NCBI RefSeq assembly: GCF_058153355.1
Contig: NZ_CM177019.1
DNA length: 64,000 nt
Direction: 5' to 3' (one strand)
Positions 33,901 to 36,900 of this stretch are shown one piece after another. The position numbers were made by a program. The first letter of the stretch is position 1. Every line of letters starts with the position of its first letter.

Positions 33901-36900
33901 TGCCGTGGGATGTGTTCCGCAAAGACAGCTCGGTGCGCTCACGCGTTGAAAAAAGCGAAGCCAACGCGCAAGCCACCAATGCGGTTATTCCACCGGCCAG
34001 AATGCCTGATAACTGATTTAGCGATCAGTTTCGGTGATCCACAGCTGGCCGCCTTCCATCCACGCTAGCCATCGACCATCCGGCGAGAAGACCACGGCGT
34101 CCGCAGAAGGGGGATTGGCGTGGTTTTCGGTTAAATACTCAACCTCGCCGCTTTGCGCATGGGCGCAAGCAATTCGATTATCCAGCACAAAGCCCAACCA
34201 TTCTCCTGACGGATGCCAGTTAAATGCAGACTGAATATCCGTTTTGTTATGGGTTAACTGGCGCGGCTCGCCGCCCTGTGGCGAGATAAGCCACAGTTGC
34301 ACAATGCCGTTATCATCACGCATTAAAAACGCGATTTGCGTACCCTGCGGATTACAGCGCACCCAGTGGCGCGGGACGTTGACTAACCCCGGATAAGCCC
34401 GATGGTGGGTAAAGGTTAAACGTCGCTGCACGACGCCACGCGGTGGCGCGGGCAGGGTTGTTTCCGTTCCACTTAACGGCGCATCACCTGCTGCTTTCCA
34501 GCCAGCTTCATCTTGCGGTAACTCAACGATGAACAGCTCCGGCACTTTCTCGCCCTTTGGCGAAAGTGTGTCGCCAATAAACGCCAGCGCGTGGTTTCCT
34601 ACCCATCCTTCTTCATAAGCACGATTAATTTCATCACTGCCAGGCTGCGGCGTGGGCGTTGTTTTACTTACCAGTACGCACCAGTGGCTACCGCTGTATT
34701 CACGCGGATGCTGCTTTTGTACGTTGACCGGGCCAAACGGTACCGCAACACTGACGTTGCGCAAATCCAGCGCCGGATCGCGTTCATGCATCACATGGTC
34801 GTTATAGGTAAAGCTCACCATTACACCGTTCGGGCTAAAGACATGTACATGGCTGCCGCCACGCAGCGCCCCTGGCGTATACGGCGCGGTAATATCCATT
34901 GCATCAAGGTTGCTCATCTTGCCGTCTTCAACAATCACGCCTCGACGGTGATGGAAATCGTAATGCCATGTTTCATCAGGATTTTCAGGTCCGTGGATAA
35001 AGACATATTTCTCTGACTTCGGATGAACGGTCACCACGCCGACGTGTGCGCCCTGTGACGCACGGTAGATAACCTCGACCTCACCGGTATGAATATTCAC
35101 ACGTTCAATAGTTTCGCCGGTAAACGACGCCCCAGAAGGACGCACGTCAAATACCAGCCACTGGCTGTCGGGCGTCCAGGTATTGGTATTAGTGAGCAGG
35201 TGATTACGGGGAGCAAAGGTTATCTGTTTCATGGCGTGGTCCTGATACAAAACGGTTTCCGCAATCATACTTCACAAGGACTTCACTTTCAGACAATAGT
35301 CTTTTGCCATCGTGATGAATGTGAGTGAAAAGATGGAACATTTCGACGTGGCGATTATTGGCCTCGGCCCGGCAGGGTCGGCGTTGGCGCGAAAGTTAGC
35401 AGGCAAAATGCAGGTGATCGCGCTGGATAAAAAGCACCAGTGCGGTACTGAAGGTTTCAACAAGCCTTGCGGCGGTCTGCTGGCACCGGACGCTCAGCGA
35501 TCTTTTATTCGCGATGGACTGACGCTTCCTGTCGATGTGATCGCCAATCCGCAGATTTTCAGCGTCAAAACCGTCGACGTCGCCGCATCGCTTACACGTA
35601 ACTACCAGCGAAGCTATATCAATATTAATCGCCATGCTTTCGACTTATGGATGAAATCGCTGATCCCCGCCAGCGTTGAGGTTTACCACGATAGCCTGTG
35701 CCGGAAAATCTGGCGCGAGGATGATAAATGGCATGTCATTTTTCGCGCAGACGGCTGGGAGCAACACATTACCGCCCGCTATCTGGTCGGTGCCGATGGT
35801 GCAAACTCGATGGTGCGGCGACATCTCTACCCGGATCATCAGATTCGTAAATATGTTGCTATCCAGCAGTGGTTCGCAGAGAAACATCCGGTGCCGTTCT
35901 ACTCCTGCATCTTTGATAATGCGATAACTGACTGTTATTCATGGAGTATCAGCAAAGACGGTTATTTTATCTTTGGCGGTGCCTATCCAATGAAAGACGG
36001 CCAGGCGCGCTTCACGGCGCTAAAAGAGAAAATGAGCGCCTTTCAGTTCCAGTTTGGTAAGGCGGTAAAAAGCGAAAAATGCACGGTGCTGTTTCCCTCA
36101 CGCTGGCAGGATTTTGTCTGCGGTAAGGACAACGCCTTTCTGATTGGTGAAGCGGCGGGATTTATCAGCGCCAGCTCGCTGGAGGGGATTAGCTATGCGC
36201 TGGATAGTGCAGAGATTCTGCGTTCGCTGTTACTGAAGCAGCCGGAGAAGAGCAACGCCGCTTACTGGCGCGCCACCCGCAAACTGCGTTTAAAACTCTT
36301 CGGCAAAATAGTAAAAAGCCGATGCCTGACCGCACCGGCTTTAAGAAAATGGATTATGCGCAGTGGTGTGGCGCATATTCCACAGTTTAAAGATTATCCA
36401 ACGCGCTTCACATCGCCCACCAGCAGGATGTAAGAGAGCGCGCCAATCAACGCGACGGCGGAGATATAAACCAGTGCAGGCGCGAAACCGTAACCCTGCG
36501 CCAGGTACCCCACCACCAGCGGAACGGTGATGCCGCCCAGACCACCGGCGAAGTTAAACACGCCGCCGGTTAAACCAATCAGCCGCATCGGTGCCAGAGA
36601 AGAGACTAACGACCAGGTAATCGAAGCAAAACCGTTGCCGAAGAATGCCAGCGCCATCAGGCACATAATCATCATCGGATCGTTGGTGTAGTTAGCACCC
36701 ATAATGCAGGTGGAGATCAGCAAACCGCAGATAATCGGCGTTTTACGCGCAAAGCCCAGTGAAAAGCCCTTACGTACCAGCAGATCCGCGACCCAGCCAG
36801 AGAGCAGGACGCCGACAAACGCCGCAAGGAAAGGCACCGTGGTCATAAAGCCCGCTTTCAACGCCGTGATGCCTTTTTCCTGGGTTAAATAGTTCGGGAA

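Follow-up and report, generated by a model that had tools for sequence, protein, structure and literature searches.

A base silent in dgoT accompanies two lengths of the convergent CbrA protein in Escherichia coli

In Escherichia coli K-12 MG1655, cbrA (yidS, b3690) and the convergent gene dgoT meet at their 3' ends. The RefSeq annotation gives cbrA 1065 nt and a product of 354 residues, and the two coding sequences share 4 nt (TTAG). A passage of PMC8469651, which cites Helbig 2012 and Barreteau 2020, states that the 354-residue CbrA of K-12 saturates the alpha-isoprene unit of C55-P-linked precursors, and that its overproduction in this way makes cells resistant to colicin M. At the transcript level, cbrA-dgoT is one of 165 convergent excludons detected by ExcludonFinder in MG1655 RNA-seq data, where it was present in at least 50% of 58 samples (PMC12288877); as in the other convergent pairs of that set, the transcripts overlap at the 3' ends. 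The pair is known from this list alone, and we found no experiment in the literature on reciprocal regulation of its two genes. The dgo promoter is under DgoR control (PMC12288454). A longer form of CbrA is also already known, as RefSeq/PGAP annotates 366 residues in both records that we inspected among carriers of the allele described here (WP_001353556.1 of strain 2013C-4282 and WP_024221645.1 of an O145:H28 strain).

We analyzed this junction in a stretch of 64,000 nt from contig NZ_CM177019.1 of RefSeq assembly GCF_058153355.1 (hereafter, the window, meaning the whole stretch). In the window, cbrA occupies 35333..36433 on the plus strand and encodes 366 residues followed by a TAA stop, and dgoT, which encodes a D-galactonate:H+ symporter of the MFS type, occupies 36394..37731 on the minus strand. 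Alignment of the K-12 and 2013C-4282 RefSeq annotations to the window placed cbrA at its K-12 position, between yidR and dgoT, and gene order, orientation and the interlocked stops were as in K-12. However, the stretch common to the two coding sequences (36394..36433) amounts to 40 nt, with the end of cbrA and the end of dgoT both inside it, whereas K-12 has the 4-nt overlap. The first-pass annotation had reported that the cbrA frame runs about 40 bp into the 3' end of dgoT and that the C-terminus of CbrA looks longer than that of K-12; translation and the K-12 annotation bear out both statements, the overlap being exactly 40 nt and the lengths 366 and 354 residues. The same annotation had allowed that the arrangement would simply be the normal one if K-12 had an identical overlap, which it does not.

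Alignment to K-12 cbrA, a check proposed at that stage, located the K-12 stop at the codon that includes window position 36397 and traced the length difference solely to this base, which is T here and G in K-12. The junction reads GAT TAT CCA in the window and GAT TAG CCA in K-12, so that in the cbrA frame a Tyr codon (TAT) stands in place of the stop (TAG). On the dgoT strand, where the stop codon is at 36394-36396, the same base is the wobble position of the last Gly codon, GGA here versus GGC in K-12, and the change is silent. The next in-frame cbrA stop, found in the window and K-12 alike, is the TAA at 36431-36433. The added segment (36395..36433, plus strand) consists of 12 extra cbrA codons and this stop, and lies opposite the final 12 codons of dgoT, in antisense. 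Its length is unremarkable, because a random frame would often stay open for 12 more codons (by calculation, (61/64)^12, or ~0.56).

The codon geometry shows how one base sets both states. The convergent genes have no intergenic spacer and their stop codons interlock, such that the base in third position of the cbrA stop complements the wobble base of the final Gly codon of DgoT. Any of the four bases at 36397 is silent for DgoT: GGT and GGC in dgoT correspond to cbrA stops (TAA and TAG, respectively), and GGA and GGG to Tyr codons (TAT and TAC). A Tyr codon at this site carries cbrA translation 12 codons further, to the in-frame TAA within dgoT. The GGA/TAT state of the window thus yields a CbrA of 366 rather than 354 residues and an overlap of coding sequences of 40 rather than 4 nt.

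To type this site in E. coli we used 5,426 complete genomes and 31-mers with the variable base at position 4, an arrangement in which each 28-nt megablast seed spans that base. The locus itself (megablast with 35300-36700) was present in 5,421 of the 5,426 genomes at 90-98.5% identity. The G allele (TAG, stop) was matched in 3,399 genomes plus 307 with the O157:H7 variant of the 31-mer, and the T allele (TAT, Tyr) in 1,301 genomes plus 35 with the O145 variant. The A allele (TAA, stop) occurred in one genome, and the C allele (TAC, Tyr) was absent from the cbrA locus, its matches falling only in other copies of dgoT, mostly on plasmids. It should be noted that roughly 90-135 of the 1,301 T matches span 29 nt and fall in a second dgo operon elsewhere on the chromosome, and true T alleles at the cbrA locus were estimated at 1,166-1,211 of these matches from an even-step listing. 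Overall, TAG accounts for ~3,700 genomes (68%) and TAT for ~1,200 (22-23%), with ~9% of the 5,426 unclassified. The first-pass suggestion of a strain-specific loss of the stop codon was therefore half right: the K-12 stop is indeed absent here, TAT standing for TAG, but an allele carried by ~22-23% of complete E. coli genomes is not specific to a strain.

The rest of the gene varies considerably. Within E. coli, cbrA (35333-36391) differs by 4-5% at the DNA level among the window, K-12 and an O157-like strain, and the window and K-12 are ~96% identical over 1.4 kb. The RefSeq record of 2013C-4282 has the same arrangement as the window (cbrA of 1101 nt, 366 residues, a 40-nt dgoT overlap and equivalent coordinates) and the same CbrA tail, but differs from it by ~1.8% of DNA; the O145:H28 protein shares the long allele and the 40-nt overlap and has an Arg-to-Cys change in the tail. 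The exact CbrA protein sequence of the window is rare (5 contigs), and across 12 kb of this region the identity of complete RefSeq E. coli genomes to the window does not go beyond ~98.5%. By these comparisons, the lineage of the window appears to be poorly represented among complete E. coli genomes; it may be an IS-rich, Shigella-like lineage, as the IS4 rearrangement described below and contigs that break at IS4 would suggest.

Read-through at this site is also found outside E. coli. A peptide-pattern scan with one genome per species gave 51 loci, from which the ends of cbrA and the neighboring genes were extracted. The site reads TAT in E. albertii (CbrA of 366 residues) and in Pseudocitrobacter vendiensis (368 residues, 40-nt overlap) and TAC in E. 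whittamii (366 residues), which further removes the state from any single strain, whereas Escherichia sp. E1V33 has TAG and a CbrA of 354 residues. All eight Citrobacter, Enterobacter and Phytobacter loci with an adjacent dgoT have TAA at the homologous site. These genera resemble Escherichia in the 4-nt interlock of the cbrA and dgoT stops and in total CbrA length (365-368 residues). In contrast to Escherichia, they have their own 13-14-residue tail, encoded by ~39 nt of cbrA DNA with a GC-rich palindrome. This palindrome, CAGCCCGCC...GGCGGGCTG, is conserved in the three genera directly 3' of the dgoT stop (loci L008, L012, L015, L018, L022, L033, L039 and L040; positions listed as ~10-50 nt upstream of the dgoT stop), and the ~39-nt segment is absent from Escherichia and P. 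vendiensis. The palindrome may form a hairpin that marks a transcript end within coding DNA.

With respect to the direction of the change, E. albertii, the outgroup of the tree described below, and E. whittamii read through, and Citrobacter, Enterobacter and Phytobacter as a rule have a TAA stop at the homologous site. Parsimony allows either a stop or a sense codon in the Escherichia ancestor, and by this comparison the polarity is ambiguous; to speak of loss, as the first-pass annotation did, or of gain would go beyond these states. The states of E. albertii, E. whittamii and P. vendiensis had at first led us to read the TAG of K-12 as a derived nonsense mutation, which we have withdrawn as a firm statement given that TAA was present at all 8 loci from Citrobacter, Enterobacter and Phytobacter. 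In a neighbor-joining cbrA tree rooted on E. albertii, stop and sense states were scattered. The O145:H28 strain has TAT and the O157-like strain TAG, and O157:H7 genomes carry the TAG variant of the latter strain by 31-mer count. These patterns indicate that the site has changed several times or been moved by recombination.

Several genomes have lost the convergent partner. Missing from E. coli O157:H7 and O145:H28, E. albertii and Escherichia sp. E1V33 are dgoRKAD and the greater part of dgoT, of which a ~110-nt 3' remnant is retained beside cbrA, followed by yidX. The left end of the deletion falls at the same, or almost the same, place within dgoT in the four (L054 5095-5208, L058 1695-1808, L005 ~4062-4171 and L003 ~4062-4167, corresponding to window 36394-~36499). 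That different species have this breakpoint in common suggests that the deletion allele is old and was spread by recombination. Another rearrangement at the cbrA-dgoT junction was seen in E. coli strain E69 (CP089930.1; L006 ~4040-4100), in which the 3' end of cbrA is unrelated from residue ~345, the tail ends in ...SHISQMNCAGHYSESRVLYPK and no dgoT follows cbrA.

The CbrA protein of the window matched NCBIfam model NF008519 (PRK11445, an equivalog) with 684.2 bits against a cut-off of 303, and on this basis the product would be an FAD-dependent, geranylgeranyl-reductase-like lipid reductase predicted to confer colicin M resistance. Residues 1-354 were aligned to profile positions 1-354 of 355, leaving the 12-residue tail outside the model. 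In an alignment of 19 CbrA homologs, conservation stopped at about residue 350 (...AHIP), and the tails beyond it were 3-36 residues long and unrelated to one another. An AlphaFold2 model built from this alignment (mean pLDDT 75.7, pTM 0.79) had its last helix at residues 335-344 and no secondary structure predicted after residue 344, and pLDDT values of residues 354-366 were below 50. No solved structure close to CbrA was found, the only match being a distant flavin monooxygenase (E = 8e-5). Because conservation, the NCBIfam model and confident structure prediction all end before the tail, and because the 354-residue form of K-12 confers resistance, the 12 added residues most likely form a disordered extension behind the last helix and matter little to the enzyme.

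At the RNA level, the best site in a consensus terminator scan was a hairpin at 36305..36342 on the minus strand (stem-loop 36315-36342), a candidate intrinsic terminator for dgo transcripts. Its stem comprises 11 pairs (6 G-C), with UUACUAUUUU next to it, and the hairpin falls within the coding sequence of cbrA, 52 nt beyond the stop of dgoT. The surrounding 106-nt RNA (36295-36400, minus strand) folded with -34.5 kcal/mol (z = -3.9), and the stem-loop sequence is the same in K-12, where the hairpin likewise lies inside cbrA. Read on the plus strand, the stem-loop is followed by AAGAAAATGG with no T tract, and its stem contains an A·C mismatch; with a T-rich tail on the minus strand only, it does not have the form of a bidirectional intrinsic terminator. 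The scan found no terminator-like site for cbrA downstream within dgoT.

The junction does have the form of an excludon, with convergent genes and overlapping transcripts. Since the coding sequences themselves overlap, by 40 nt here and by 4 nt in K-12, full-length cbrA and dgoT mRNAs must overlap, K-12 included. Moreover, because the sole terminator-like structure for dgoT falls within cbrA and the scan gave no such structure for cbrA, overlap of the transcripts is expected in every allele, unaltered by the base at 36397. The substitution would shift only the point on the cbrA mRNA at which ribosomes stop. The supplements of an E. coli 3'-end mapping paper (eLife 62438) contained no entries for cbrA or dgoT.

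The genetic context of dgoT in the window differs from that of an ordinary dgo operon. The DgoT reading frame is intact and the protein matched TIGR00893, the D-galactonate transporter subfamily of the MFS, with 495.1 bits (cut-off 395); it has 445 residues in the RefSeq model and 430 from an alternative start at 37686 in other gene callers. Next to it, dgoD is reduced to a remnant of about its last 51 codons (37806..37956, minus strand; galactonate dehydratase model NF010624, profile positions 332-382 only), cut by a 1426-bp IS4 (37957..39382, minus strand) with 18-nt terminal inverted repeats at 37957-37974 and 39365-39382 and a transposase matching NF033592 with 304 bits. No target-site duplication was found in the flanks of this element, and its other flank contains PstS-family fragments and glpD/glpG/glpR/rtcR. 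Because the dgoD remnant is joined to a distant chromosomal region without a target-site duplication, the dgo operon has been broken by an IS4-mediated inversion or translocation (window 37806-39520), with dgoT left as an intact reading frame cut off from the rest of the operon and its promoter. With IS4 between dgoT and the DgoR-controlled promoter, galactonate is unlikely to induce a convergent transcript in this strain. Some E. coli, such as the XDL chromosome (L059 3001-6029), have a second dgo cluster at another chromosomal site, with dgoA, dgoD and a dgoT-like MFS transporter gene; this cluster adjoins a degraded IS200/IS605 tnpA and hypT. A dgoT-like MFS transporter gene is also borne by large plasmids (matches H82 and H84-H86).

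We consider the variant in the window to be a common cbrA allele that is probably neutral, with a probability of about 0.88; its neutrality we infer from sequence comparison. A sequencing or assembly error was rejected and has a negligible chance of being correct, since two independent NCBI assemblies (GCA_015332025.1 and GCA_043012465.1) match the window at 100% identity across 6,618 nt in this region and more than 1,100 complete genomes have the T allele at the cbrA locus. Another proposal is that the 12 residues are a selected C-terminal extension that alters, for example, membrane association, stability or lipid-reductase activity. About one fifth of E. coli, together with E. albertii, E. 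whittamii and P. vendiensis, keep the long form intact, and relatives outside Escherichia have a CbrA of similar total length (368 residues). Furthermore, the 36 tail-coding nt are identical in the window and in E. albertii, against a difference of 8% over the whole of cbrA; with most of dgoT lost from E. albertii, and the constraint from DgoT gone with it, this could be a hint of constraint on the tail. However, the neighboring 35 nt of cbrA also differ by only 1 base, and the O145:H28 tail has an Arg-to-Cys change. The tail is the antisense of the conserved DgoT C-terminus, so dgoT explains its conservation wherever that gene is intact, and the counterparts in homologs have neither a common sequence nor a common length. 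The predicted disorder also argues against a function, and according to the cited passage of PMC8469651 overproduction of the K-12 protein without the tail already confers resistance. In addition, both alleles occur within one lineage pair, that of O145:H28 and the O157-like strain. Selection for the tail is therefore improbable, at odds well below one in ten; if it did act, the 366- and 354-residue forms would be distinct alleles tied to the ecology of their lineages, e.g., to colicin M exposure.

Regulation offers another reading of the same overlap, and the first-pass annotation had raised it as an antisense arrangement. The longer overlap might work as an excludon-type device, with altered convergent interference, RNase III cleavage or Rho termination changing the coupling of cbrA and dgoT relative to K-12. 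The listing of the pair among MG1655 excludons, the position of the sole dgoT terminator-like hairpin inside cbrA and the lack of a terminator-like site for cbrA within dgoT are all compatible with such a device. These features, however, are common to K-12 and the window: the coding sequences overlap in K-12 as well, the hairpin is inside cbrA in both alleles, and the substitution moves a stop codon rather than a promoter or terminator. The status of the pair as an excludon comes from the list only, and the 3'-end data do not include either gene. In this genome, IS4 has truncated dgoD, and the dgo genes before it lie elsewhere together with the promoter, so that induced convergent transcription from that promoter is unlikely. 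We thus regard a regulatory effect of the substitution as slightly less probable even than selection for the tail, and the idea of an antisense arrangement brought about by this base found no support. A related proposal is that the wobble base of the last Gly codon of DgoT acts as a natural switch between CbrA isoforms, with the antisense-overprinted tail changing CbrA level, membrane association or activity. We find this no easier to credit than the regulatory device; were it true, colicin M susceptibility would differ between the TAT and TAG lineages of E. coli.

A common and probably neutral allele thus remains the preferred reading, and its significance is small, as nothing here predicts a difference in colicin M resistance between the isoforms. 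CbrA has two lengths, 354 and 366 residues, and neither is an annotation error. The interlocked stops make this junction a tidy example of overlapping genes, in which a silent change in one gene is a stop/sense change in its convergent neighbor.
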